Assembly: GCA_016795325.1 (NCBI GenBank)
Contig: JAEUHY010000043.1
Span: forward strand, 30,174 to 94,173
Source of the DNA: Planctomycetota bacterium
GTDB lineage: Bacteria; Planctomycetota; UBA1135; GCA-002686595
Length of the DNA: 64,000 nt
Reading direction: 5' to 3'
Every line of letters begins with the position of its first letter. The stretch's first letter is position 1. Positions 23,268-39,018 of the stretch are shown here, piece by piece. Both the position numbers and the translations under genes were made by a program. The notes below the pieces were generated by a model that was given only the letters and a program-made list of their open reading frames with translations, was not told the origin of the DNA and ran no database searches.

Positions 23268-24536
23268 TCACGCGGCGGCGCCCGCGAGGCGCGGCGCGAA
23301 GTCGAGCACGACCGTGAACACGCCGTCGTGCTCGCGCGTTTCCAAGCGCCAGCCGAAGCGTGAGCACAGGTCGCGCGCGATCTGGAGTCCAAAGCCGAAA
23401 CCCTCGGCCGACGAACGTGATTCGTCAGCGCGAGCCGCGTTGCGCACGACCAGGCGAGCTCCGTCGACTTCGAGCTCGACGGCGCCGCCGCCGTGGCTCA
23501 GCGCGTTGCCGAGCACGTTGCCGAGCACGATGCGCGCGAGGCGCTCGCTGCCGTCGACGAGCGCGTCGGCGCCGCGCGTGAGTTCGAGCTTCGCACCTGC
23601 GCCGGCGACGGTGCGCCGTTCGCTCACCAGCGCCGCCACGAGCGCGCCGAGCGTGAAGCACTCGCGATCCAGGCCCGCTGGAGTCGTGGCCGGTTCGCGT
23701 GCAAGCCACAGGAAGGCGTGGACCAAGTCCCCCATCTCGACCAGCGCGGCCTCGACGCGCCGCAGCAGCTCGAGGCGTCGCGCGTCCGTGGCTTGCGGCT
23801 CGTCCCGCAACAGTTCGAGCGCGCCGCGCGCCGCGGCGATCGGCGTGCGCAGCTCGTGGCTGGCGTCACGCGTGAAGCGCTGCTCACGCTCGAGCGCCGC
23901 GCGCAGCCGTGTGTCGGCGTCGCGCCACAGCCGCGCGATGCGGCCGATCTCGTCGTCGCGTTGTTCGGCGGCGGAAGCCGGCGCCAGCGGCGCAGCTCCG
24001 GCGACGAGCCGCTCCAGGTCGTCGAGCGCGCCGAACAAACGCCGCGCAGCCATCAGCCCGACGATCGTCGCGAGCACGGCCAGCGCGAATCCGCCGCCGA
24101 CGGCGCCGACGTAGTTCCAACTCCACGGTCCCTCGAGCGCCTCGAGCCCGGTCAGGTCGTAGAGCAACCAACGCTCCGGCCTGCCCGCAGCGTCGCTCTC
24201 GACAGCCACGATCAGCTCGGTCGCGTCGAGGCCGGGCAACGGCTCGTCGTTGAACTCGTGCACACCGGGCGGCAGGGAGCGCAGGAACTCGGCCAGTTCG
24301 GGCCGCTCGCGCGAAAGATCGCGCACGACACGCGCGCCAGGCGCCGCGAGCGCGCCGTCGAGGTCGCCGGGACGCGCCGCTTGCTCGCGCAGTCGCTCGA
24401 GCTGGCGCGCGAAGATCTTGTCCTCGGTGTCGAGCACCAGGCGCGGAACGACCCACGCATAGGTCAGTGCGAGCGCCGCGCCGAAAGCGGCGATCAAAAC
24501 GGTCAAACCACGACGCAGGCGCGGCGGAGAACTCAC
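23268..24536 (-). CDS. Sensor histidine kinase (two TM, HisKA + HATPase)
   Basis: GTG at 24536 overlaps the regulator stop (GTGA). H-box is FTRDASHELRTP. N/G boxes are LGNALSH and GFGFGLQIA. Two TM segments flank a ~130-aa periplasmic loop. Confidence 0.88.
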   Translation of the reverse strand: MSSPPRLRRGLTVLIAAFGAALALTYAWVVPRLVLDTEDKIFARQLERLREQAARPGDLDGALAAPGARVVRDLSRERPELAEFLRSLPPGVHEFNDEPLPGLDATELIVAVESDAAGRPERWLLYDLTGLEALEGPWSWNYVGAVGGGFALAVLATIVGLMAARRLFGALDDLERLVAGAAPLAPASAAEQRDDEIGRIARLWRDADTRLRAALEREQRFTRDASHELRTPIAAARGALELLRDEPQATDARRLELLRRVEAALVEMGDLVHAFLWLAREPATTPAGLDRECFTLGALVAALVSERRTVAGAGAKLELTRGADALVDGSERLARIVLGNVLGNALSHGGGAVELEVDGARLVVRNAARADESRSSAEGFGFGLQIARDLCSRFGWRLETREHDGVFTVVLDFAPRLAGAAA

Positions 24537-25213
24537 GCGCCCTCCTCGCGCGCGACGCGATAACCGATGCCGCGCACCGTGTGCACGAGCGGCGCGAGCC
24601 CGTCGACGTCGATCGCCTTGCGCAGGGCGTAGATGTGCGAGCGCAGCACGCTGCTCTCGGGCGAGAAGCCATCCCACAGCACACGCTCGAGGTGCTCGCG
24701 AGTCACGACGCGCGGCGACGCGCTCATCAGCTCGCGTAGGATGCGCAAGCCGACGCGGTTGAGCTCCAGCGCGCGGCCAGCGCGCTCCACGCGCAGCTGT
24801 CCGAGGTCGTAACGCAGGTCATCGACAATGAGGACCTCCGACTCTGCGCGCGTGGAACGCCTCGCCAACGCCTGCAGACGCACCAGCAGCTCGGCGCCTT
24901 CGAACGGCTTGACCACGTAATCGTCGGCGCCTGCCGCGAAGCCCTCGAGCTTGTCCTCGAGCGTGTCGCGCGCGGTGAGCATGAGCACCAGCGGTCCGCT
25001 GCCGCGCTGCTCACGCAACTTGCGACACAACTCCAGACCATCGAGGTGCGGCAAGCCCAGATCGAGCACGACGACCTCGTGGTTGCCCGCCAGCGCGAGC
25101 AAGAGCCCGCTGCGGCCGTCGATGGCAACGTCGACTTCGTGACCAGCTCGTTCGAGCTGTTCGGTCAGGTTCGCGCGCACCGCGTTGTTGTCTTCGATGA
25201 AGAGGATTCGCAC
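24533..25213 (-). CDS. OmpR-family response regulator
   Basis: GTG at 25213 (VRILFIEDN). It has the receiver residues ...VVVLDLGLP, LTAR and DDYVVKPF. The winged-helix C-terminus ends TVRGIGYR. Confidence 0.9.
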   Translation of the reverse strand: MRILFIEDNNAVRANLTEQLERAGHEVDVAIDGRSGLLLALAGNHEVVVLDLGLPHLDGLELCRKLREQRGSGPLVLMLTARDTLEDKLEGFAAGADDYVVKPFEGAELLVRLQALARRSTRAESEVLIVDDLRYDLGQLRVERAGRALELNRVGLRILRELMSASPRVVTREHLERVLWDGFSPESSVLRSHIYALRKAIDVDGLAPLVHTVRGIGYRVAREEGA

Positions 25214-25340
25214 CGCTTCAAAGTACGGCGCCGAACAGCGCGGCGGAGCACCGCGGACCGCTCGAGCAGCTGATTCGACTTCGAATCGACGCGGAATCGA
25301 CACCACGCCGCAACGCGTCGTGCGCACACTCGCACGCCCC

Positions 25341-26240
25341 ATGAAGAGCCTCACCACATGTGCTGTTTTCCTCGCGATTTGCGCCAGTTCCTGTGCAGCC
25401 GGCGCCGGCGCCTTGCGTTCCTCGAGCACGTCGCCACGCTCTCGACCTGGACCTGCTCAAGAGCAGGGCGCAGCTGTCGATACCCAAGCGGCCGCGCTCG
25501 TCCCCTCGCCCTCCGTGCTCGACTTCACGCGCGGCGGCGGCTGGGGCGTCGCGCTCGGCGTGGGTGTCGAGTACGAGGCCGCGTACGACGGCTCCGACGA
25601 GTACGAAGTCGAGCTCGACCCCGCGGGCGCGATCCAGTGGCGCAGCGGACAGCACCTGCTGTTCTTCGAAGGCGCTGAACTCGGCTGGCGCGGCGTGTTC
25701 GACGAGCGCTGGTTGGTGCAAGCGGGTGCGCGCTACGAAGACGGGCTCGATCCGAGCGACTCCGAGGATGGCGTGCTGGACGGACTGCCCAAGCGCGATT
25801 CCCACTTGACCGGCTTCTTCGAGGTGCGGCGCGCGCTCGACGCGCAGTGGCGCAACTGGATCGCCGGTCGCGTGCTCGCCGGCGAGAGCGACTTCGGCGC
25901 GCTCGGAGTGCTCGCCGCCGGACACCGCTTCGGCGACAGCATCGAGGGACTTGGGACCGAAGTGTTCGTGTTCTCGACCTTCGGCGATCGCGCGTTCGTC
26001 GAGAAGGACTTCGGCGTGACCGCCGCTGATTCCGCAGCTTCGGGGTTGGCGCAGACGGACATCGACGGCGGCTATCGCTCCAGCGGCCTGCAGCTCGTGC
26101 ACCGCGAGCGCCTCACCGACAACCTGCAGGTCATCGCGCAGGCGGGCGTCGAGTTCTACAACTCGCAGATCGGCGGCAGTCCCATCGCGCGCGACGACTT
26201 CGAGGGTGAGGTGTCGCTCGCGCTGGTCTGGGCGTTCTGA
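25341..26240 (+). CDS. MipA/OmpV-family outer-membrane protein
   Basis: ATG at 25341 with signal/lipobox FLAICASSC. The beta-strand pattern [16 protein letters not shown]... ends in LALVWAF. It is divergent from the two-component system, a common MipA context. Confidence 0.75.
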
Positions 26241-26371
26241 GCCGCATCCGTAGCGCGGCGCGGGGCTCGAAGCAGCCTCTTTTCCGCCGCGAACTGCGCA
26301 CTTTGGCTGGCGCGAGCGCCTGCAGCACGGGGTGGAGTGCAGCAACTCGCTTTGCTCTCGCGGAGGACCTC

Positions 26372-27034
26372 GTGAAGAAGATCGTCATCATCGGCGCGTT
26401 CGCGCTGGGACTGGTCGCCAGCGCCGTCGCCGCCGCGCATTGGACCGCCCCCGGACGCAAGGCGCAGTTCGTCTTCGGCGGCGCGCTCGTCGACGTCGGA
26501 TACGGCCTGCAGGACGGCGTCGAGAGCTACGACTTCGCGCACGAGCACGAGCTCAAACCGGCGCAGGTGTGGGCCGAGATGCTCAAACACAATCGGCTTT
26601 CGTCCGGCATGCGCCACGCGTTTCCGCGCACGGCGCACCACCCGCTGGTGGCGCTCGTGGTGTGCATGGACGCGCGCATCGACACCAACGAGCTCGTCGG
26701 CGACACACGCCGCTTCTACTACGTGATCCGCACCGCGGGCTCCGTCATGGGCGAGCGCGAGCACGAGATGCTCGAGCTGGCGGTGGCGAACGGCGTGAAG
26801 CTCGTCGTGCTCACCACGCACAGCGACTGCGCCGCCGAGCGCGCGGCCGCCACGCCGGAGCTGCGCGAGAAGTTCCCGGCGCTCTCGCGCGCGGTCGATG
26901 AGCGCGAGGCGTCCGTCGCGGCCTTCTTGGAGCGCCCCACCATCGCGGCCGCGCTCGCCGCCGAGCGGCTCCGCGTGGAGCGCGTCGCCATCGAAACCCT
27001 GACCGACCAGCTGGAAACGGACGGCGAGCGCTGA
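26372..27034 (+). CDS. Membrane-anchored beta-class carbonic anhydrase-like protein
   Basis: GTG at 26372 is preceded by GGAGGA. N-terminal TM is [19 protein letters not shown]. Zinc-ligand motifs are CMDARID (CxDxR) and THSDCAA (HxxC). Confidence 0.7.
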
Positions 27035-27063
27035 GCCCGTACGCGGGCTCTCCATGCCCGCTC

Positions 27064-30000
27064 TCACGGTTTCTCGGCCTCGAAATCGAGCCGCAGCTGG
27101 GTGTTGCCCTCGGCGCCGAGTTCGAGCTCGACGGGCGTAGCGCGCGTCTTGCAGTCGAGTGCGACGCGGTAGCGCCCCGGTTTGAGCCCCACGACTTCGA
27201 AGCGTGCGCGCCCCTCGGCGTCGACGCGCGCTGCAATGCTCCGCACTCTGCCGACCGTTTCGTCGACTCCTCGCACGTGCAGGTTCACGACGCGATCTTC
27301 CGCAGGAACGCCGACGAGCAGTTCGTCGGGAACGCCGACCGTTCCAGCGCAGACGACGCCTCGATCCAGTCGCAACTCACACGTGACGAGTGATGCGCCC
27401 TTAGACACGACGCATTCGCCTGCGCAGTAGCCGTGCGTCGCATGTTCCGCCGACGCGCTGAAGGCGCCAGCCTGGTACACCGCGACCGTGACACGTCCCT
27501 CCGAGTCGGTCTCAAGCGTTCCGAAGCCCACTTGGCGCTGCTCGCTGTCGCGCAACTCGCACGGCACATTCGCAACGGGCTTGCCCGCGACGTCGAGCAC
27601 ACGCACCTCGATCACGCAGCGCTGGAGGGCTATCTCGAGTCTGCGCGCCTCGCCCGCAGCGAGCTCGATGCGGCGAATCCAGGGCGTGAAGTTGGAGTCC
27701 TCGTCCCTCAACCTGAGGAAGCGCAGCTGTGCGCTGTACGAACCCGGCTCGATCCAGCCGAAGTCGAACCCGCCCTCGGCGTCGAGGCGGACTTCGCGGA
27801 AGCGTTGCGCACTTGCTCCACGGCCAGCTAGGCTCAGCGCGAGCCCTTCGTGTGCTCCGGCGGCGAGCGTGACGCGGCCGTGCAAGCGCGCACGTCCGCT
27901 GTTGGCGGGAGGAAACGAAGGATCGACTTCGATGGTCAGTTCCGTGCGCTCGCCGGGATCGATCCCAACGCTCACCATGCGCTGAGGAGTCGCATCGCCT
28001 TCCACGGACGCGAGCCAGGTTTCGATGCCGGCATCGCTCGCCAACGGCTCGTGCAGGTCGAGCAACCAGCGTCCCGCGGCGAGCCGATCGATCGTCGCTA
28101 CGCCGTCGGCCTTCGTGCGCGCGGAGAGGCTCCACACGCCGAGATCGCCGACTGCGACGTTGGCGATCCACGGACGTTTCGCGGGCGCACCGCGTTCGAG
28201 CACCTGCACACGCACGGAACCGCCCTCATCGAGCGTGAACTCCTGGGAACGAGCGCCGTACTCGACCGGCACGTTGTAGAGCGGCGCGAACTCGTGATGC
28301 CAGACGTCGCAGCGCAGGTCGTGAGCCGCAAGGCCCGCTGGCAATGCGAGCTGCGCGACTCCGTCGGCGCCGGAAAGCGCGCGGGCCACGACCCTTCTGG
28401 AGTCGGAGCGCAGCGTGACTCGGGCGCCGGCGATCGGGCGAGCGTCGGCGGCCTGCACGATGCGCACGTCGTATTCGACGGCGGCGTCGAGCGAAATCGC
28501 GAACTCGGCGGACTCGTCTCGAACCTCGACCGGTGCACGCACCGACGCGAAACCTCGCCGCCGCGCAGTCGCGAGGTAGCTTCCGGGCGCCAAAGCGTCG
28601 AACACAATCGGCGAGTTGCCGCGGCGCGTCTGCAGCGCCTGTTCCGCGAGAGCGCTCAGCGCAGCGCCGTTTTGCGTCGTGGCGTTCAGCTCCACTTCGA
28701 CATCGTCGAGCGGCTCGCCAGTGGACGAGCGCACGACGACGCGCAATTCGCGTTCGCGCGGCAAACGCAGCTCAAGCGCCTGAAGCGTGGCGAATTCGGC
28801 GCACGTCCAAGCCATCTTCGCCGAGCGGCGCGCCGCAACGACGACGACGCCAGCGGTGGCGAGTCCGTCGCACTTGAAAGTGCCGTCGAGCGAGCTGAGT
28901 CCAGCGCTGCGGAGCTGCGCGAAGCTCGCAGCGGGCGCGCAGACTCCGACGCACACCTCTACACCGGAAATCGGCGCTCCATCGGCGTCCACGACGCGGC
29001 CGACGAGCGATCGGCCACGTGCGAGCACGACATCGCCGAGTTCGCGCGTCGCTCCGACAGCGGCTTGCTCGCGAAGGTCGCGGGGCGCGAAGCCGTGCGC
29101 CGTGAACTGCAGCTGCACCTCCCCCTTCGGCGCCGCGATCCGGAACGCCCCCGACTCGTCGCTAAGTACCGTGGGAGTTGGAAGTTCCTCGAGCGACGTC
29201 CTGAGCCACGGCGCAGGCGCGACAACCGACCAGCGGTCCTCCAAGCGACTCGCAACGGCGGCTTCGACAAGCGAGACGGCGCCGAGCCTGCCCGGCAGTG
29301 CAACGCGCACGCGCACACTGGCGAGCGGCGCGCCGGCGTCGTCGACGACTCGCCCGACCAACTCCGCGCGCTTCGCGAGCGGCACGTCGCCCAGGTCGAG
29401 TTCCCCGTCGGACGCTGGCGAGCCTTCGACCCCACGTGCGTGGCCACGCGGTCCTCCGCTGTCGATCGCGAGGAGCAGCAGTTCACCGCGCCGCCCACCC
29501 GGCAGCACGAAGCGACCATCCGGACCGGTCGTGTCGCGCGAACGTTCGACGTTCGGCGGCGCGTCGCGCTCGTCGGGGAGCTTGGGCGCGGACAGGTCGA
29601 GATCGAACGCGAGCAGCCGCACGTCGAGCTTCGCGAGCGGCGCACCCTGCGCGTCGACGAGCCGACCGCGCACCCCGCGAAGCGCTTCGACGCCGGCGTC
29701 CCCGCCCGAACTGACGGCTTCGGCGCGCGCAGTCGCCAGCGCCGCGGTTGCAGCGTAGTTCACTTCGGCGAGAGGCTCCGACATCTCGAGTGTGGCCGGC
29801 GCGGTCGCGGTGTCGGTTACGGACGAGCTCGCCGACTCGACAGCGATCCACGCGGCGCCGGCGAGAAGCGCTGCGAACGCAGCGACGAGCGCAATCGGCC
29901 CCGCCATGAGAGGCGCGGCCGGCGTCGGCAGGCCGCGCGCTCGGCACGCCCGCGCCAAGGTGTCCGCGCGCAACCTGCGCAGCCGCAGCGGCTCGATGGT

Positions 30001-30537
30001 CCACGCAAACAAACCACCGCCGAGCGCGCGGCGCAGGCGTTGCAGCCCGCGGTGAATTTGCATGCGCACCGTGCCCGGTGCGCGTCCTGTGAGCAGCGCG
30101 ATGCGCTCTGCCCCGAACTCACCGTGGAGGTAGGGTGCGAGCACCTGGGAATAGTGCGGCGGGAGCTCGCGCACTGCCGCGGCGACACGCTCCAACAACT
30201 CCGCACGCTCGGCGGCGGCGTCCGGCGAGTCGCCGTCGACGAGGGTCGGCAGCTCACTCGTCCTGCCGCGCTTGCGCCGCAAGTTGCGAGCGTGCAGGAC
30301 AAGGATGCCGACCATCCACGGCAGCGGGCTGCGTCCGCGTTCGTGCGTTGCGGTCTTTTCGATCGCTGTCAGAAAACTCGCCTGCACGAGGTCTTCGGCG
30401 TCCTCGCGCGAGTTGCCCAGGCGCCGCGCGACCCGCAACAACTCGGGAGCGCAGGCGTCGAACGCTCGCCCCAGCGCGTCGGTGTCCCCGCGAGATCGAA
30501 AGCGCTCGAACAGTGCTGCGAGATCGTGTTGCTGCAT
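27064..30537 (-). CDS. ECF sigma-70 factor fused to a TM helix and a ~900-aa ectodomain of carboxypeptidase-regulatory-like beta-sandwich repeats (1157 aa)
   Basis: ATG at 30537. Region 2 is DAEDLVQASFLTAIEK...PWMVGIL. Region 4 is LPPHYSQVL...ERIALLTGRAPGTVRMQIHRGLQRLRRAL. The TM is MAGPIALVAAFAALLAGAAWIAV. Repeated modules follow, e.g. GRLVDAQGAPLAKLDVRL, GRVVDDAGAPLASVRVRV, GRVVDADGAPISGVEVCV. It is one uninterrupted frame. Confidence 0.75.
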   Translation of the reverse strand: MQQHDLAALFERFRSRGDTDALGRAFDACAPELLRVARRLGNSREDAEDLVQASFLTAIEKTATHERGRSPLPWMVGILVLHARNLRRKRGRTSELPTLVDGDSPDAAAERAELLERVAAAVRELPPHYSQVLAPYLHGEFGAERIALLTGRAPGTVRMQIHRGLQRLRRALGGGLFAWTIEPLRLRRLRADTLARACRARGLPTPAAPLMAGPIALVAAFAALLAGAAWIAVESASSSVTDTATAPATLEMSEPLAEVNYAATAALATARAEAVSSGGDAGVEALRGVRGRLVDAQGAPLAKLDVRLLAFDLDLSAPKLPDERDAPPNVERSRDTTGPDGRFVLPGGRRGELLLLAIDSGGPRGHARGVEGSPASDGELDLGDVPLAKRAELVGRVVDDAGAPLASVRVRVALPGRLGAVSLVEAAVASRLEDRWSVVAPAPWLRTSLEELPTPTVLSDESGAFRIAAPKGEVQLQFTAHGFAPRDLREQAAVGATRELGDVVLARGRSLVGRVVDADGAPISGVEVCVGVCAPAASFAQLRSAGLSSLDGTFKCDGLATAGVVVVAARRSAKMAWTCAEFATLQALELRLPRERELRVVVRSSTGEPLDDVEVELNATTQNGAALSALAEQALQTRRGNSPIVFDALAPGSYLATARRRGFASVRAPVEVRDESAEFAISLDAAVEYDVRIVQAADARPIAGARVTLRSDSRRVVARALSGADGVAQLALPAGLAAHDLRCDVWHHEFAPLYNVPVEYGARSQEFTLDEGGSVRVQVLERGAPAKRPWIANVAVGDLGVWSLSARTKADGVATIDRLAAGRWLLDLHEPLASDAGIETWLASVEGDATPQRMVSVGIDPGERTELTIEVDPSFPPANSGRARLHGRVTLAAGAHEGLALSLAGRGASAQRFREVRLDAEGGFDFGWIEPGSYSAQLRFLRLRDEDSNFTPWIRRIELAAGEARRLEIALQRCVIEVRVLDVAGKPVANVPCELRDSEQRQVGFGTLETDSEGRVTVAVYQAGAFSASAEHATHGYCAGECVVSKGASLVTCELRLDRGVVCAGTVGVPDELLVGVPAEDRVVNLHVRGVDETVGRVRSIAARVDAEGRARFEVVGLKPGRYRVALDCKTRATPVELELGAEGNTQLRLDFEAEKP

Positions 30538-30644
30538 GCCTGTAGTCGTCGCCGGACACGCAGAGTGCAACACGAAACGCAGCGATTTGCGCTCGCGGGG
30601 CGTTCGGTACGGCGCAGCATCTTCGCGAGCGCCGCTAGACTCTC

Positions 30645-32015
30645 GTGGTGTTCCGCTGGATTGGCCTTTTGGCACTGCTGGCCGCGCTCGTGTGGATCTT
30701 CACGCGTTCGGACGACCGCGGCGCCGCCACGGCGCACGCGGACTCGCCTTCGACTCCGATCCCGCGCCCAGCGCAGGTCGCGGAGCTCGTCGAGTCGGAG
30801 AGCGAGCAACGCAGAGCCGTCGACGTCACGCAGACGCCCGACACAGCAACGTCCGCTGCCGACGACCGTGAGATTCCAATTGAACTCGCAACGCTCACTG
30901 TGCGCGTTCTCATGCCGGATGGAACACCGTGGACCGACGCCCGGGTCCAAGTGACGGCGGGCCCGCTGTCGCTGTCCGGCGTGCGCTTCGACCTGGGGCC
31001 ACGCAGCGACGGGCGTTGGCGCTACAACCGAGTGCTCTCGGACGCGCTGGTCAGCTACGCGATCGTCGATGTGGACGAGCACGGTTGCGCGCGTCTGCAG
31101 CGCGTCACGCCTGGCGTGGCGTTGGAGGTGCGCGCGCGCGATGTGCTCGAGACCGTCGGCGCGCGAGCCGAGCGAGTGGTGCTCGAAACGGGCGAGCAGC
31201 GCACGCTCGAGCTCAAACTCGATTCGTTTCCACGCGAGCTGCACGGCCGCTGCAGCGATGAGCGCGGCGTCGGCGTCGCTGGCGCTGAAGTGAGCATCGG
31301 CGTCGCACTCGAGTTCACGGACGAGTTGGCCACGGCGCTGCGAGCGCGTTCCGACGACGCCGGCGAGTTCACGACGCCGTCCCTGCTGGCAGCTCGGCTG
31401 GCCTTGCACGCCACGCACGCCGGGCGCAGCGCGAACACGATCTTCGACACCTCATCGCGCGTGGGAGGCGTCAAGTTGCTCCTCGAGACCCCGCGGAGCC
31501 TGCGCGTCGAGTTGCAGGGCAGCAATGGCGATCCGCAGCGCGACGTGCGCGTGAGTGTGCACGAAACGACGGGCGAGGAGCTGTTCGACACGCCCCGGAC
31601 ACCTGGCGAGTACGGGATCCTGTTCACCGATCTGCCGCGGCGACCGCTCGAGTTGCGCTGGGGCTCGCGCTGCGCTCCGCAGTCGCAAGTGGTCGCGGAG
31701 CACGTCGACCGAGTCCTCGTGATCGCGCCGCGCAACGGAGAATTGCAGCTTTCCGTCGGCGCGCTGCCGGGCGACGAGCGCACGCGGTACGCCGTGCAGA
31801 TCCACTGCGCCGACGCGGATCGCGCGGCCGCGCCGCCTTGTTCCTTTTTCAACGACGGCCGCTTCGAAGGCTCCTGGACGCTCGCTCCGGGCCACTACGC
31901 ACTCAAGCTCGTGCGCTTGCCGAGCGCCGCCGCGGAGCAGGTGCTTGTGTGGGGCGAGCCGCTGCGCGTGGAACTTCGCGCTGGCGAAACAACCCGCGCG
32001 CGGCTCGGGCAGTAA
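30645..32015 (+). CDS. N-terminally membrane-anchored protein with beta-sandwich (CarboxypepD_reg-like) repeats (456 aa)
   Basis: GTG start. The TM is WIGLLALLAALVWIF, followed by an acidic/Pro linker and modules such as LTVRVLMPDGTPWTDARVQV. It is divergent from the sigma-fusion gene, with a 107-nt gap. Confidence 0.7.
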   Translation: MVFRWIGLLALLAALVWIFTRSDDRGAATAHADSPSTPIPRPAQVAELVESESEQRRAVDVTQTPDTATSAADDREIPIELATLTVRVLMPDGTPWTDARVQVTAGPLSLSGVRFDLGPRSDGRWRYNRVLSDALVSYAIVDVDEHGCARLQRVTPGVALEVRARDVLETVGARAERVVLETGEQRTLELKLDSFPRELHGRCSDERGVGVAGAEVSIGVALEFTDELATALRARSDDAGEFTTPSLLAARLALHATHAGRSANTIFDTSSRVGGVKLLLETPRSLRVELQGSNGDPQRDVRVSVHETTGEELFDTPRTPGEYGILFTDLPRRPLELRWGSRCAPQSQVVAEHVDRVLVIAPRNGELQLSVGALPGDERTRYAVQIHCADADRAAAPPCSFFNDGRFEGSWTLAPGHYALKLVRLPSAAAEQVLVWGEPLRVELRAGETTRARLGQ

Positions 32016-33313: not shown

Positions 33314-35563
33314 ATGCGCGTTCAAGCCGTTCTCGCCGTTTCGATCTGTGCAGCGCTGCTCGTTTGGCTGGCTCTGTCGCGTTTTGAGCACGAGCAGTAC
33401 GCCAGGCCCGCGTCTGTCGCTTCGATGCGGGCGAACGCGACGAGCTCGGCCGTCGGCGACGCTGCTGACGAGCTGCAGTCAAGCACGCCGCAGCGCACGG
33501 CCGCCCCCGCAGCCGTCGAAGCGTCGTCGATCGAGGACGAACTCGAGCCGGCCTTCACCCGCACCGTGCGCGTCGAAGTTGTCGACCGCCATGGACGCCC
33601 TGCGTCCAACGTCGTGGTGTCACTCTTCGAACCGGATCGCGGAGAGTGGAGCGACCACGACTCAACAACCAGCGACGCCACGGGCGTCGCGACGTTGACG
33701 ATCGAATCCGACGAGCCGTTCGAGACGGACGGACTGTGGCGCATTGCGACGCCCGTCGTCGGATGCGAGCCAGAGTTCCTCGAGCTGTCGCTCGCAAGTC
33801 CCTCGCACCCCGCACTGCGGCTGACCATCGCCGAGAGTGCAACGCTCGAAGTTCAAACGAGAACGCTGGCCGGCGCTGCGATCGAACTGCCGAGCGACAT
33901 CGCCCTCCAACTCGTCTCCAAGCGTGGTCAACCGTTCGGCATCGCGCACGGGTGGTGGCTGGTCGGACGAGCGCGCCGCGGATTCGCTCGCTTCGAGCAC
34001 ATCGGCTTGGGGCTCGAGTTCAGAGTCACCGCACGTTCTGACTTCGCAGACTTCACCGCGTGCACTGTCGAGAGCCCGCGAACGCCAGAAACCAAGCTTG
34101 CGGTCGCGCTCCAGGCCGAGCGGCTGTTCACTCGCGTTCGCGCCCGGCTGCAGACAGCCTCGGACAGGCCGCTCGCAGATCAGTACGTCCACGTGCGCGC
34201 GTCCTGCGCCGACTGGCGTGAACACTCGGCGGCGCGGGGGCTCACCAACCGGGCGGTCGTCAAGAGCGACGGCGAGCTCGAGTTCTTCGTGGAACACAGC
34301 CTCTTGGGGATGGGCCCGTGGATCGAGTTCGTGGTGAACACGAACCGATGTGCGCGCCTAGCGGGGCGGACTGCACTGGGGCCACCGGCCCTCGAAGACG
34401 GCCCGCTCGAACGCAACGTCTTCGATGTCGGCGACGTCGTCCTGTACGAAGCCCCCTACTTCGCGTGTGGCCGGGTGATCGACGACGACGGCCGTAGTAT
34501 CGCGCACGCAGCGGTCCTGCTGATCGATCTCGACGCGCAAGGACTCGAGCGCGTGTGCGCACGCACAACGGCCGGCGAAGAGGGCGCATTCGAGCTTGAC
34601 CCCTCGTGCGAGGCCGACGAGCACGAGATCCGCGCGAGCCACGGCGATGGCGAGCCAAGCACATCGCAGAAGGTGCGACGTGGCGCCGCCGCCCTCGTAC
34701 TGATCCTGCCGGCAAGGCCTCAGTACGGCTACCTGCGGGGCGAGCTGCTCGTTGCAGAAGGCGTGAACTGCGAGTTCCTGGAGCTGACGAGCGAACTGCT
34801 CCCATCTGAGTCGGCGCCTTCCGAGGGAATTTGGCTGGAGCCCACCGGGAAGTTCGAGACGAGCCTCCGCGCTCCCGGCGACTACACCCTCTCGGTGAGC
34901 TTCCTTGGAACGACGCTAGTGCGAGGCGCGCCGTTCACGGTCGTGCAGGGCGCAACCACCGAGCTCGAGCCGATCGACTTGCGCGATCAACTCCACGCCT
35001 TTGCCGTGACGATCACGAACGCCGCTGGCGAAGCGCTGCCCGATGCGTTGGTTCAGATCGTCGAGCCCGACGGCAGCGGCGGCCAAGAAGCCGAGTCCGA
35101 CGCGAAAGGCCTGGCGATCCTGACCACCGTTCAGCGCCGCCACGATCTCGTCGTGCTGGCAGCGGGCTACCGCACGCAACTCGTGAGGGACACCGTCTCT
35201 GGCGCGCGGATCGCGCTCGTCGACGGCCTCTCCGCTCGCCTGCGTCCTCCCGAACTCGGACCCGACGCGACCGGCTTCGCGCTGAGCGTCACGCTCTGGC
35301 GCGACACGCGCGAGGACGAGTTGCGGGAGGCCCCCGTCCGTCTCACCAGCGTAGACGCTTCGCCGATCGACGTCCGCTTCTCCGCGGCGGGGCACTACCG
35401 CGTGGCCAAGGCGAGCTGGCGCGAAGTCTCCACGGGCATCGAAACGCCGATCGAATGGCCGCCGGAGCTGATTCTCGACGTGCCTGAACACGGCGGCGAG
35501 CTCGCGTTCGTGTGGCCGGTGGACACGTTGCGACAAGCTCTGCCGCGTGCCAGACCGAAGTGA
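33314..35563 (+). CDS. N-terminally membrane-anchored protein with beta-sandwich repeats (749 aa); paralog-like to 30645..32015
   Basis: The TM is AVLAVSICAALLVWLAL, followed by a Ser/Ala/Glu linker and modules such as VRVEVVDRHGRPASNVVVSL, GRVIDDDGRSIAHAAVLL, VTITNAAGEALPDALVQI. Confidence 0.7.
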   Translation: MRVQAVLAVSICAALLVWLALSRFEHEQYARPASVASMRANATSSAVGDAADELQSSTPQRTAAPAAVEASSIEDELEPAFTRTVRVEVVDRHGRPASNVVVSLFEPDRGEWSDHDSTTSDATGVATLTIESDEPFETDGLWRIATPVVGCEPEFLELSLASPSHPALRLTIAESATLEVQTRTLAGAAIELPSDIALQLVSKRGQPFGIAHGWWLVGRARRGFARFEHIGLGLEFRVTARSDFADFTACTVESPRTPETKLAVALQAERLFTRVRARLQTASDRPLADQYVHVRASCADWREHSAARGLTNRAVVKSDGELEFFVEHSLLGMGPWIEFVVNTNRCARLAGRTALGPPALEDGPLERNVFDVGDVVLYEAPYFACGRVIDDDGRSIAHAAVLLIDLDAQGLERVCARTTAGEEGAFELDPSCEADEHEIRASHGDGEPSTSQKVRRGAAALVLILPARPQYGYLRGELLVAEGVNCEFLELTSELLPSESAPSEGIWLEPTGKFETSLRAPGDYTLSVSFLGTTLVRGAPFTVVQGATTELEPIDLRDQLHAFAVTITNAAGEALPDALVQIVEPDGSGGQEAESDAKGLAILTTVQRRHDLVVLAAGYRTQLVRDTVSGARIALVDGLSARLRPPELGPDATGFALSVTLWRDTREDELREAPVRLTSVDASPIDVRFSAAGHYRVAKASWREVSTGIETPIEWPPELILDVPEHGGELAFVWPVDTLRQALPRARPK

Positions 35564-35654
35564 ACCGGCGGGCGCGCGCGACTGCACTGCGCGCGCAGCG
35601 CGGCGTTATCTTGGCCCGCGCAAGCATGGGCGAGGCGAAGCGAGCGAGCGTGCG

Positions 35655-36263
35655 ATGAGCGACGAGCTCGAACGTAGGGTGGAAGCAGCGTCGCGCGGCG
35701 AGGTCGGCGCGCTCGAGCAGTTGCTCGAGGCGTTCTTGCCGGACCTGCGCAAGTACCTCGCGCGCCACGCCGGTCCGCTGGTCAGCGCGAAGGAATCGAG
35801 CTCGGATCTCGCGCAATCGGTCTGCCGCGAGGTCCTCGAACGCTTGGGCAGCGAGCGGCTGCAGTACCGCGGCGAGGCCGAGTTCAAGCAGTGGCTCTAC
35901 AACGCCGCGCTGTTCAAGATCCGCGCGCGCCAGCGCTTCTACCTCGCGGCGATGCGCGACGCCGGCCGCGACGAACGCGGGGCCGCGAGCCAGGACAGTC
36001 GCGGCAGCGTTGCGCCCGACTGGAGCGATCCCGCGAGTGCGACGCCAAGCCGCGCGGCAGAGCAACACGAGGACATCGAGCGCATGCGCGCCGCGCTCGC
36101 CAAGCTGCCGCCCAAACACCGTGAGGTGATCGTGCTGGCCTACGTCGACGGCCTCTCGCACAAGCAGATCGCTGAACGGCTCGAACTGAGCGAAGCCAAT
36201 TCGCGCGTGCTGCTTTCGCGCGCGCTCGCGCGGCTCGCAACGCTCGGCGTGAAGAGCGAGTGA
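35655..36263 (+). CDS. ECF-type RNA polymerase sigma factor
   Basis: ATG at 35655. Region 2 is SSDLAQSVCREVL...FKQWLYNAAL. Region 4 is LPPKHREVIVLAYVDGLSHKQIAERLELSEANSRVLLSRALARL. A Ser/Asp/Arg-rich ~45-aa linker lies between them. Confidence 0.85.
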   Translation: MSDELERRVEAASRGEVGALEQLLEAFLPDLRKYLARHAGPLVSAKESSSDLAQSVCREVLERLGSERLQYRGEAEFKQWLYNAALFKIRARQRFYLAAMRDAGRDERGAASQDSRGSVAPDWSDPASATPSRAAEQHEDIERMRAALAKLPPKHREVIVLAYVDGLSHKQIAERLELSEANSRVLLSRALARLATLGVKSE

Positions 36264-36267
36264 GGCC

Positions 36268-39018
36268 TCAGCGCTCGGTGTCGGGCGCGTGGCGCGCCAG
36301 AAAGTCGGTCAGTCGCTTGCGCACGCCGGCGACGTTCTTCGCCTGACTGGGCGCCGACTCGACGACCTGGAGCGCGCGTTCGAGCTGCTCGCGCGCGAGT
36401 GGAAGCTGCTCCAGCCCCTCGTACGCATCCGCGAGCCACAACAGCGACTGACCGACGTCGAACTCCGCGCGCGGGATCGAGGTGAGGATCTCGAGCGCGT
36501 GGTCGAGCGCGGCGCGCGCGGCCTCGTACTGGCGCAGCTTGAGGTGGCAGTGGCCCGTGCGCATCAGGATGCCGCCGAAGTTCCAGCGCGCCTCGAGTTC
36601 CTCGCGCCCCTCGAACAGCCGCGCGGCCTCGCTCAGCGCCTCGAGCGCCTCGGCGAAGCGACCCGCGGACACGAGCGCGCGGCCGCGGCCGTAAGCCGCG
36701 ATGCGGCCCACGTGCCCCACGGCGCCGCTGCTTTCGCGGTCGACCTCCTGCGCGCGCGCGAGCAGGCCGAGCGCGCGGTCGAAGTCGCGCTGTTCGACAA
36801 GCAACATGGCCCAGTTGTGCAGCAAGTTTGCGTACGCGCTGCCGCGGTCCAGGCGTAGTTCGCGCGCCAGACAGTCGGCCTCTTCGTAGAGCACGCTCGC
36901 CTCCGCCGGCCGTTGTTCGAGTTTGGCGAGCAGCGCGGCGACGCCGACCGTGTCGAACAGATCGGGGTGAACTGACGGCAACAACTGACGCTGCAGCGCA
37001 AGTGCGCGCTCGAGGCAGGCGCGCGCTTCGGGCCGCTCCTGACGCTGCATGTGCAGCTGGGCGAGCAGGGTCAGCGTGCTCGCGATGCGCCGCTCGCGCT
37101 CGGGCACATTCGCGCGCTCGAGCAACGCGAGCACCTCGCGCGTTGTCGCGATGGCGAGCTCCCACTCGGAGAGCGTTCCCTGCAGCGTGGCCTGCAACGA
37201 AAGCGCGTCGACCAGCGCGTCGTCCGACTCGCTCGCGCGGGCCTGCGCGATGGCGCGTTCCACGACGGGCCGCGCGAGCTCGAACTCGCCCAATTGCACG
37301 TAGCTCAGGCCCAGAACCTCGTCGAGCTCGCACACGACTTCGGACGGCGGTCCTTCGAGCCCGGCATAGTGCGCGCGAGCGCGCTCGAGCAGCGGTCGTG
37401 CTTCGCGGTGCCGCCCGAGCTTTCCGAGCACGCGACCGATGCCCGCTTCGATGCGAGCGCGCGCCGCGGGGTCCAAGTCCGCGTCGCTCTCGACGCGCCG
37501 CGCGCCCTGCTCGAGCAACGCGAGCGCAGTCGTGTCCGTTCCCAGCGTGAACTCGGGCGAGGTCGACGTGAACAGCTCGAACACGAAGTCGAGGGCGCCG
37601 CTCGCGGTCGCGGCGGCCGTCTCCGCATTCGCGCGTTCCCGCGTGGCGGAGAGTTCCGCCGCGGCAGCAACCGCGCGCTCGCGCTCCGCTTCGCCGCGCG
37701 CCGCGCGTTCCTTCTCGAGCGCATCGCTGAGCTCGCTCGCATGGGCCTGCTCGCGCAGCAAGAAGGCCGTCGGAGTCGCGACCGCGACAAGCAAGCCCGC
37801 AGCGAGCGCCGCGACAAGTCCCGGGCGCCGCTCGGCGAAGCGCAGGGTGCGCACGAAAGGCCCCGCAGCGCGCACTCGGATCGGCTGCCGTGCGAGCAGG
37901 CGGTCGAGATCGTCGCGCAGCAACGCGGCGCTCGCGTAACGCCGCGCGACGTCGCGCTCGAGGGCGACGAGGCAAACCGTCTCGAGTTCGGCGCCGACGC
38001 GCCGGTTGCGCGCGCGGACTGGCGGCGGCCGACCCTCGAGGATCGCGGCCTGCAGCTGCACGGCGTCTGCGCCGCGGAACGGGAGCTGGAGGGCGAGCAG
38101 CTCGTACAACGTGACGCCCAGGCCGTACACGTCGACGCGCCCGTCGAGCACACGCTCGCCGCGCACTTGCTCGGGCGCCATGTACGGCAACGTGCCTAGC
38201 TGCGCGCCGGTGCGCGTCTGCGCACTGTCGCCTTCGAGCAAGGTGAGCCCGAAGTCGATCAGGCGCGCGCGGCCGTCGAGCGTGAGCATCACGTTCGAGG
38301 GCTTGATGTCGCGGTGGAGCACGCCGCGCTCGTGGCTGTGCTCGAGCGCATCCGCGACATCGCGCGCGATGCGCACGCAGGCTTCGGTCCACGACACTTC
38401 GAACAGCGACTCCGGCGGCGGAGCGAAGTCTTCGCCCATCTCGCGGCGCAGCGCGGCCAACAGATCGGCGCCGTGCAGCGTGTCGGGCGCGCGCGTGGCC
38501 AGCGCTTCGAGGAGCTTCGCGAGCGTGGCGCCGGCCACGTGCTCCATCGCGTAGAACGGAACGCCGCGCTCCTCGCCGACCTGGTAGATCGGCACGACGC
38601 CCGGGTGCGCCAAGCGCGCGACGGCCTCCGCTTCGCGGCGAAAGCGCTCGCGGACACGCGGGAAGTAGAGCTGGTCGGCGCGGATGAGTTTGAGCGCGAC
38701 CTCGCGGTTCAAGGAGCGCTGGCGTGCGAGGAACACCACCCCCATGCCGCCGCCGCCGAGCCGACGCTGCAGCGCGAAATCGCCTAGTTCCGCCGGGAAC
38801 TCCTCGCCCTCCGCAGGTGCGTCTTCGACCAGCCCCATGCTCGCCAGCAAGCTCCAGCGCCGGCGCAGCTCCCCCGAATGCGTCGGGTGCCGCGAACACA
38901 GCTCGTCCAGGCGCGCGGAACGTTCCTGGGGGGCACGCTCGAGGCACTGCGCGAGGAGCAGCTCCACTTCGTCGCTGCCGTCGTCGGCTTCGAAGGCTTG
39001 CTCGGATACGAAGCTCAT
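36268..39018 (-). CDS. Ser/Thr protein kinase with TM helix and C-terminal TPR array (916 aa)
   Basis: Kinase motifs: GGGGMGVVFLA, VALKLI, HRDIKPSNVML, DFGL, GTLPYMAPE. The TM is LVAALAAGLLVAVATPTAFLL. Many TPR-like repeats follow. Its stop is 4 nt from the convergent sigma gene stop. Confidence 0.92.
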   Translation of the reverse strand: MSFVSEQAFEADDGSDEVELLLAQCLERAPQERSARLDELCSRHPTHSGELRRRWSLLASMGLVEDAPAEGEEFPAELGDFALQRRLGGGGMGVVFLARQRSLNREVALKLIRADQLYFPRVRERFRREAEAVARLAHPGVVPIYQVGEERGVPFYAMEHVAGATLAKLLEALATRAPDTLHGADLLAALRREMGEDFAPPPESLFEVSWTEACVRIARDVADALEHSHERGVLHRDIKPSNVMLTLDGRARLIDFGLTLLEGDSAQTRTGAQLGTLPYMAPEQVRGERVLDGRVDVYGLGVTLYELLALQLPFRGADAVQLQAAILEGRPPPVRARNRRVGAELETVCLVALERDVARRYASAALLRDDLDRLLARQPIRVRAAGPFVRTLRFAERRPGLVAALAAGLLVAVATPTAFLLREQAHASELSDALEKERAARGEAERERAVAAAAELSATRERANAETAAATASGALDFVFELFTSTSPEFTLGTDTTALALLEQGARRVESDADLDPAARARIEAGIGRVLGKLGRHREARPLLERARAHYAGLEGPPSEVVCELDEVLGLSYVQLGEFELARPVVERAIAQARASESDDALVDALSLQATLQGTLSEWELAIATTREVLALLERANVPERERRIASTLTLLAQLHMQRQERPEARACLERALALQRQLLPSVHPDLFDTVGVAALLAKLEQRPAEASVLYEEADCLARELRLDRGSAYANLLHNWAMLLVEQRDFDRALGLLARAQEVDRESSGAVGHVGRIAAYGRGRALVSAGRFAEALEALSEAARLFEGREELEARWNFGGILMRTGHCHLKLRQYEAARAALDHALEILTSIPRAEFDVGQSLLWLADAYEGLEQLPLAREQLERALQVVESAPSQAKNVAGVRKRLTDFLARHAPDTER

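Follow-up and report, generated by a model that had tools for sequence, protein, structure and literature searches.

The 64,000-nucleotide stretch of DNA analysed here (the window), from contig JAEUHY010000043.1 of a Planctomycetota bacterium, carries on its minus strand, at 27064-30537, a gene whose 1157-residue product joins an extracytoplasmic function (ECF) sigma factor, a single transmembrane (TM) helix and a long repetitive ectodomain in one polypeptide. Sequence comparison strongly supports the view that this fusion is ancient and has been maintained by purifying selection in a large family of Planctomycetota. The sigma domain probably drives the promoter of its own gene, which would amount to positive autoregulation. 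By analogy with a characterized fused sigma factor, IutY, the protein is somewhat favoured, at little better than even confidence, to be a combined envelope sensor and transcription factor from which the sigma domain would be released by regulated proteolysis.

The coding sequence and the parts of its product are as follows.

27064-30537, minus strand: complete coding sequence of the fused protein, 1157 amino acids and the stop codon (27064-27066); two independent run assemblies contain it unchanged.

30259-30537, minus strand: sigma region 2, residues 1-93; PF04542 at 43 bits, AlphaFold2 helices over residues 2-91 at a predicted local distance difference test (pLDDT) score of about 95, and D49, Q52 and W74 invariant among relatives.

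30022-30225, minus strand: sigma region 4, residues 105-172, with the -35 recognition helix that holds M159; PF08281, TIGR02937, and R158, R163 and G164 near-invariant among relatives.

29908-30021, minus strand: basic juxtamembrane segment, residues 173-210 (38 residues), with a conserved helix at 177-201; AlphaFold2 helix at pLDDT 77-91.

29839-29907, minus strand: single TM helix, residues 211-233, N-terminus in and C-terminus out, by hydropathy, charge bias and homologues.

29677-29838, minus strand: disordered periplasmic spacer rich in Ala, Ser, Thr, Pro and Glu, residues 234-287; pLDDT about 30, least conserved part of the protein.

27067-29676, minus strand: nine tandem beta-sandwich modules (CarboxypepD_reg, prealbumin or Ig-like), by PF13620, Big_1, DUF4198, an all-beta AlphaFold2 model and Foldseek; the modules span approximately residues 288-386, 390-504, 509-591, 596-683, 685-769, 773-870, 883-971, 974-1056 and 1061-1151.

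An earlier interpretation made from the letters of the window (the sequence-only reading) had described a sigma factor, a TM helix and a long ectodomain in one uninterrupted frame, with the caution that a frameshift might hide a stop near the TM helix. The 3474-nt gene and the 110 nt upstream of it were identical, with 0 mismatches, in Logan assemblies made from two separate sequencing runs, and GC content by codon position (0.76/0.53/0.80) was even along the whole gene. Because the two assemblies agree and the architecture is conserved well beyond the source genome, in homologues down to 24% identity, a frameshift or hidden stop was rejected; the 1157-residue frame is intact, the description holds, and the ectodomain measures about 920 residues. 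The mechanical open reading frame (ORF) extends upstream to a GTG at 30675. The ATG at 30537 was taken as the start because the N-termini of all close homologues align to it (MQQHDL, MQHPQL, MRHDL or MKQREL), the conserved promoter lies inside the extension, and the longer frame would run into the divergent gene, which starts at 30645; on the same grounds the GTG was rejected. An ORF of 1034 amino acids antisense to the gene (27850-30954, plus strand), Arg-rich, of low complexity and with a third-position GC content of 0.75, looks like a shadow frame of high-GC DNA and not a gene.

The sigma regions 2 and 4 that had been seen at the N-terminus were recovered by profile searches. Sigma70_r2 (PF04542) matched residues 26-93 at 43.0 bits (cutoff 24) and the sigma70-ECF model TIGR02937 matched residues 21-172 at 55.0 bits (cutoff 42.9), while Sigma70_r4_2 (PF08281) matched residues 116-168 at 25.1 bits, slightly below its cutoff of 25.7. 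Neither region 3 nor region 1.1 was found in the sigma part (residues 1-172). This content of sigma2 and sigma4 only is that of an ECF (group 4) sigma factor, with a borderline region 4 profile. Sequence and fold matches in the PDB were to ECF sigmas only and ended at residue 172. The AlphaFold2 model, built with 30 homologues (mean pLDDT 79.9), has a helical sigma2 at residues 2-91 and a helical sigma4 at residues 105-171; a second model of residues 1-240 reached pLDDT 88.4. No NCBIfam ECF subfamily or equivalog model reached its cutoff, the best being TIGR02983 (60.5 vs 141.6 bits) and TIGR02989 (55.2 vs 124.6 bits). The family may already have a group number in the ECF Hub.

The short basic linker and the TM helix that had been placed at about 29840-29908 were found at nearly these positions, with the linker comprising 38 residues and the helix occupying 29839-29907. 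The Kyte-Doolittle 19-residue maximum of 2.45 falls on this helix, which is the sole segment of the whole protein at 1.6 or more; AlphaFold2 puts the helix at residues 215-234, between a juxtamembrane helix at 178-200 and a disordered stretch at 235-287, and the homologues likewise have one TM helix. Since seven Lys or Arg residues lie within the 30 residues before the helix and none within the 30 after it, the protein is oriented N-in/C-out, with the sigma domain in the cytoplasm. Architecture and topology are, where not directly shown, strongly supported.

The juxtamembrane segment is conserved at a level nearly that of sigma region 4. In an alignment of 166 family members the mean information per column was 2.04 bits for the segment and 2.47 bits for region 4, and one face of the helix was nearly fixed (L186 in 142/166, R190 in 155/166, V193 in 147/166, L194 in 135/166 and A197 in 119/166). 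The helix is preceded by a conserved Pro/Gly turn and followed by a conserved Lys-Lys before the TM helix, by W230 at the outer TM end (130/166) and by P239. No anti-sigma or zinc-finger profile matched residues 173-210 of the target or the 37 sampled relatives described below. The segment holds no His and one Cys, and the commonest Cys column of the alignment has Cys in only 11 of the 166 relatives, so that no Cys is conserved. The 54-residue spacer beyond the membrane had the lowest identity of all regions among close orthologues (21%, compared with 70% for sigma2, 63% for sigma4, 41% for the juxtamembrane segment, 34% for the TM helix and 38% for the ectodomain), and is a candidate site-1 cleavage zone.

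CarboxypepD_reg (PF13620) matched the ectodomain in six stretches totalling 127.8 bits (cutoff 32.3), with further matches to Big_1 and DUF4198, and AlphaFold2 folded residues 288-1151 into nine beta-sandwich modules at pLDDT mostly 85-95. The sequence-only reading had counted at least eight modules by a G-R-(V/L)-V-D signature. As a count of domains this stands; the signature itself is explicit in only three to six modules, with strict G-R-(V/L)-V-D..G.P copies at residues 291, 395 and 513 and weaker copies at residues of about 600, 688 and 975. Foldseek matches of the ectodomain were to pilin, adhesin (SdrD-B) and macroglobulin domain arrays, and are generic Ig-like matches with TM-scores of at most 0.26.

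Conservation of the fusion was examined with both the whole protein and its cytoplasmic part. A word-indexed search returned 57 full-length homologues of 774-1517 amino acids, those with names being metagenome-assembled genomes (MAGs) of Planctomycetota. Records list both sigma and CarboxypepD_reg domains for all but two of the 57, one of the exceptions being a truncated call at a contig end. The order of sigma factor, TM helix and CarboxypepD_reg modules is kept in homologues from 24 to 68% identity, and among close orthologues the ectodomain aligns end to end (865 of 869 residues). Residues 1-210 were then used as the query against 1.84 billion cluster representatives (50% identity clusters), with at least 117 clusters found at E<=1e-30; 128 of the best 150 matches are at least 600 residues long. 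Among 37 relatives sampled from this search, region 2 was present in 37, region 4_2 in 36 and CarboxypepD_reg in 35, while WD40, FecR, zf-HC2 and RskA were found in none of the 37. Because a query with the sigma factor and its juxtamembrane segment returns almost only long proteins, nearly all with CarboxypepD_reg, the sigma clade and the ectodomain have been inherited together.

A scan of one genome per GTDB species returned at least 365 relatives, nearly all in Planctomycetota MAGs and often in several copies per MAG. The family is thus commoner than the sequence-only reading had allowed. One relative comes from the cultured Engelhardtia mirabilis Pla133 (locus L044, NZ_CP036287.1 6037526-6043047). 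Its product of about 896 amino acids has the sigma factor, juxtamembrane helix, TM helix and a beta-rich ectodomain.

Two further features lie directly upstream of the start codon.

30546-30573, minus strand: conserved ECF-type promoter, with a -35-like element GTGTTGCA at 30566-30573 and a -10-like element GGCGACGA at 30546-30553, ending 8 nt before the ATG.

30574-30590, minus strand: a pair of phased patches rich in A/T (AAAT, 30585-30588; TTT, 30575-30577) that precede the -35 element.

The arrangement GTGTTGCA-N14-CGACGA has the -35/-10 layout of an ECF promoter and stands before the sigma factor's own gene, as in a putative autoregulated promoter. The form GYGTTGC-N15-GCGACGA-N8-ATG is common to all close orthologues. 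Of 81 family loci, 50 have a GT[GAT][AG]C element that begins between -40 and -31 from the start codon, compared with 2 of 81 for a control window; 24 nt farther downstream, at 9-11 nt from the ATG, stands a conserved A (82%). With its 'AAC-like' -35 and CGAC-like -10 about 15-16 nt apart, this layout fits an ECF promoter. Since the promoter leaves at most about 3 nt for a leader, the mRNA is probably leaderless. The sequence-only reading had pointed to 30538-30644 as a divergent promoter region; a conserved promoter for the fused gene is indeed found there, while the same motif is absent in front of the divergent gene (30645-32015). A scan for sigma-70-type promoters returned 0 sites in 26900-30800.

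The -35 variant goes with a residue of the sigma factor that would read it. Residue 159 sits in the sigma-4 recognition helix GTVR-X-Q. The two agree in 49 of 49 loci: the 19 with Val at this position have GT[AT]AC, and the 30 with another residue have a different variant, GTGAC or GTTGC where it is Met and mostly GTAGC where it is Thr. On the best sigma tree, built without the recognition-helix columns of residue 159, the residue and the -35 variant change at least nine times and always together; L041 (Val, GTTAC) and L087 (Met, GTTGC) form a supported sister pair. Because the -35 variant tracks the protein's own residue 159, positive autoregulation with co-evolving specificity is indicated, as stated at the outset.

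Loci outside the GT[GAT][AG]C pattern (L055, L085, L081, L043, L073, L082 and others) have GCAAC, GCAGC, GTGAG or GAAAC at the same position. By eye these variants again go with residue 159, which is Ser or stands in a changed H/N-M context (Ser, for example, with GCAAC), and this hints at a broader residue-to-base code. In the Engelhardtia mirabilis locus the -35 is GTAAC, with V159. A/T enrichment at -17 to -14 and -8 to -5 relative to the -35 element is family-wide, in genomes of about 70% GC. In many family promoters (loci L010-L089) the patches are one helical turn apart, often as the direct repeat GGAATC-N4-5-GGAATCC. Possible roles are that of an UP-like element or of a site where a regulator binds in tandem, for instance a response regulator of the OmpR type.

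The genes around the fusion were examined for a partner. The divergent upstream neighbour (30645-32015, plus strand) encodes 456 amino acids, with a single TM helix at the N-terminus and an ectodomain of CarboxypepD_reg-like type (29.7 bits, slightly below the cutoff). Its cytoplasmic part amounts to just four residues, which rules it out as a classical anti-sigma factor. Around seven orthologues the neighbours differ each time, and no conserved partner gene was seen. A linked anti-sigma gene was therefore rejected, the divergent neighbour being unsuitable and the synteny different in every orthologue examined, and no FecR or TonB-receptor profile matched the target or its neighbour proteins. 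That the protein has no fused or linked anti-sigma domain is likewise shown or strongly supported.

Downstream, the convergent neighbour (26303-27034, plus strand) encodes a beta-carbonic-anhydrase-like protein with an N-terminal hydrophobic anchor. Farther on, within 24533-27034, are a MipA-like outer-membrane protein (25185-26240, plus strand) and an OmpR-family response regulator (minus strand). On the other side, the segment 32131-35563 (plus strand) encodes a fatty-acid desaturase (PF00487, 78.9 bits) and then a 749-residue TM-anchored protein (33314-35563) with CarboxypepD_reg, Big_1 and MG4 domains and no sigma domain, so that three membrane-anchored proteins of beta-sandwich repeats, including the target, lie within 9 kb. 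The target ectodomain showed 27% identity over 259 residues (E 3e-5, marginal) to the product of 30645-32015 and no significant similarity to that of 33314-35563, and recent paralogy with these two genes was rejected since the similarity is marginal at most. In 35547-39018 a second ECF sigma ORF (plus strand, ending at 36263) converges on the gene for a 916-residue Ser/Thr kinase with TPR repeats (36268-39018, minus strand), the two stops being 4 nt apart; the pairing suggests a kinase-regulated ECF of planctomycetal type.

In the proposed proteolytic mechanism the sigma domain would be held in the cytoplasm by the basic juxtamembrane helix and the TM helix, which tether it to the disordered linker and, beyond this, to a rigid periplasmic stalk of nine Ig-like modules. 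In the tethered state it would be inactive or poorly available to RNA polymerase. A signal perceived by the ectodomain, or damage to the ectodomain, would lead to site-1 cleavage in the exposed linker, after which a site-2 intramembrane protease would cut the Ala/Gly-rich TM helix. The released fragment of about 22-25 kDa, made up of the sigma domain and the juxtamembrane helix, would bind core RNA polymerase and amplify its own synthesis along with that of a further regulon. The unconserved disordered linker, the Ala/Gly-rich TM helix and the positive autoregulation fit this route without proving it.

Several points weigh against this account. Proteolysis is favoured solely by the analogy with IutY (PMC5411451). 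Part of the association between residue and promoter is explained by shared ancestry, since resolution of the sigma tree is weak and strong branch support extends to only two independent pairs. The leaderless mRNA is deduced from spacing alone. No second copy of the promoter motif stood out above chance in the 64-kb window, whether searched with a clade-specific regular expression or with a family position weight matrix. Finally, so strongly conserved a juxtamembrane helix is more than a simple tether would need; autoinhibition, dimerisation or protease recognition may come in as a further layer. Of the earlier proposal of a self-contained sensor and sigma factor, the architecture and the bona fide ECF domain, with no linked anti-sigma gene, hold up; regulated proteolysis and action at the membrane, which it had named as routes, are both live options, the former by analogy.

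The sigma factor might instead act while tethered to the membrane, which appears unlikely. The 38-residue segment would let the C-terminus of sigma-4 stay attached while RNA polymerase is joined at the membrane, and activity would depend on the state of the ectodomain, either allosterically or through oligomers formed via the conserved juxtamembrane helix, as with membrane-bound regulators of the ToxR or CadC type. C-terminal extensions are tolerated in ECF holoenzymes, as in ECF41 and ECF42 (PMC7826278). A juxtamembrane helix with one strongly conserved face is more in keeping with a role in signalling or dimerisation than with that of a tether to be discarded. Coupling of transcription, translation and membrane insertion near the locus would also be possible with a leaderless, autoregulated transcript. 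Against these points, we know of no membrane-tethered active sigma factor that has been demonstrated. A chromosome-wide regulon would be hard to reach from the membrane, and the sole studied analogue, IutY, requires cleavage by RseP for any activity (PMC5411451).

The juxtamembrane helix could also be a minimal built-in anti-sigma element, packed between sigma2 and sigma4 in a closed state that the ectodomain signal relieves conformationally, with or without cleavage, as in ECF41-type C-terminal extensions. This is rather doubtful as well, and it is compatible with either proteolytic release or tethered action. It would account for the conserved helix face (L186, R190, V193, L194 and A197), and the AlphaFold2 helix is fairly confident, as given above. 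In Foldseek comparisons the N-terminal model had a root-mean-square deviation of 9-12 A to compact sigmas bound by anti-sigma factors versus 22-23 A to sigmas extended in holoenzyme; since the TM-scores are at most 0.52 and the predicted TM-score of the model is 0.61, the relative placement of sigma2 and sigma4 is unreliable. Similarity to anti-sigma profiles was found neither in the target nor in the 37 sampled relatives, and a lone helix of 25 residues is far shorter than class I anti-sigma domains.

More speculatively, and with quite a low probability, the sigma domain would never be released. RNA polymerase would be assembled at the inner membrane on the leaderless gene itself and a few others, and the nine-module stalk, estimated at roughly 30-40 nm, would report the width or integrity of the planctomycetal periplasm, which is unusually large, through the conserved juxtamembrane helix. 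If true, a single protein would serve as a mechanical ruler of the envelope with a direct link to transcription initiation.

That the fusion is an artefact of a frameshift joining two genes, or a recent fortuitous insertion of a duplicated sigma cassette ahead of an unrelated gene, with no integrated function, is hardly credible: unrelated C-terminal extensions have been acquired by insertion in some planctomycetal sigma duplicates (Pinto et al., PMC7671368) and the TM-anchored, sigma-free CarboxypepD_reg genes at 30645-32015 and 33314-35563 are of a type that could be captured, but the same gene was recovered in two independent assemblies, the similarity to those neighbours is marginal or not significant, and the presence of CarboxypepD_reg in 35 of 37 sigma-selected relatives and of the same domain order across homologues at 24-68% identity indicates an old, co-inherited fusion.

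Among known systems the proteolytic account has its closest counterpart in IutY of Pseudomonas putida (ECF243), a 374-residue sigma/anti-sigma hybrid with a FecR-type periplasmic domain and a partner TonB-dependent receptor encoded next door (PMC5411451). IutY is processed by Prc, through periplasmic trimming, and by RseP, within the membrane, to a sigma fragment of about 23 kDa (PMC5411451; review PMC8999054). Both proteins carry in one chain a cytosolic ECF sigma factor, whose region 4 is followed directly by a single TM helix, and a periplasmic domain, and both lack a cytosolic anti-sigma domain. They differ in that the target ectodomain consists of about 920 residues in nine beta-sandwich modules, with no FecR domain or receptor partner found, and in that proteolysis is shown for IutY and proposed by analogy for the target. 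IutY is proteobacterial and was described as unique (PMC5411451); it is the only fused membrane-spanning sigma factor dissected so far, whereas the target family is planctomycetal and comprises hundreds of such fusions.

In the actinobacterial groups ECF48, ECF52 and ECF53 (e.g. SCO4117) the sigma factor likewise has a C-terminal fusion partner made up of TM helices and an extracytoplasmic region, the latter including in ECF52 a proline-rich linker and a carbohydrate-binding domain, and all three have been proposed to be activated proteolytically (PMC5826349, PMC8999054). The target resembles them in joining an ECF sigma factor to a C-terminal TM and extracytoplasmic extension. The actinobacterial proteins carry a zinc-finger anti-sigma domain (ZAS-like, HxxxCxxC) between sigma-4 and the membrane, whereas the target has there 38 residues with no His, one unconserved Cys and no zf-HC2 match.

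In Bacillus subtilis, pro-sigma-K is itself the substrate of a site-2-type protease, SpoIVFB, and is membrane-associated until cleaved. It is a group-3 sigma factor with a short N-terminal pro-sequence and no TM-anchored ectodomain, and its polypeptide senses nothing outside the cytoplasm. The likeness to the target is that the sigma factor, not an anti-sigma factor, is the membrane-held polypeptide, cleavage of the target being suggested by analogy; the TM-anchored ectodomain is what sets the target apart.

Planctomycetal ECFs with long C-terminal extensions, ECF01-Gob, were reportedly described by Jogler et al. in 2012. These proteins, ECF57 and the clusters of Pinto et al. share with the target their phylum, a very long extension and several copies per genome. 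ECF57 is described as having repeats of WD40-like type and a conserved pair of cysteines that bridge sigma2 and sigma4 (PMC8999054; PMC7826278), and none of the planctomycetal long-extension ECFs (ECF57 and the duplicated clusters) has been studied experimentally (PMC8999054, PMC7826278, PMC7671368). Membership in ECF57 or ECF01-Gob was rejected because the hallmarks are absent: WD40 was found in 0 of the 37 sampled relatives and CarboxypepD_reg in 35, and there is no conserved Cys of the kind given in the description of ECF57. In the clusters of Pinto et al. (PMC7671368) the extensions are unrelated, whereas that of the target was inherited together with its sigma clade.

No paper linking sigma factors with CarboxypepD_reg extensions was found in the literature searched. 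The target family does not overturn current concepts: an ECF sigma factor with a fused TM C-terminal extension, thought to be activated by proteolysis, is a known kind of protein, represented by IutY, ECF48, ECF52 and ECF53. The family gives a lead on envelope sensing in a phylum with unusual cell biology, and cultured Engelhardtia mirabilis provides a tractable case for the control of a sigma factor that is itself a membrane sensor. New features recognised here are the conserved juxtamembrane helix, the ECF-type promoter abutting the start codon, and the covariation of the -35 element with residue 159. Through this covariation the family supplies naturally orthogonal sigma/promoter pairs whose specificity can be read from residue 159.

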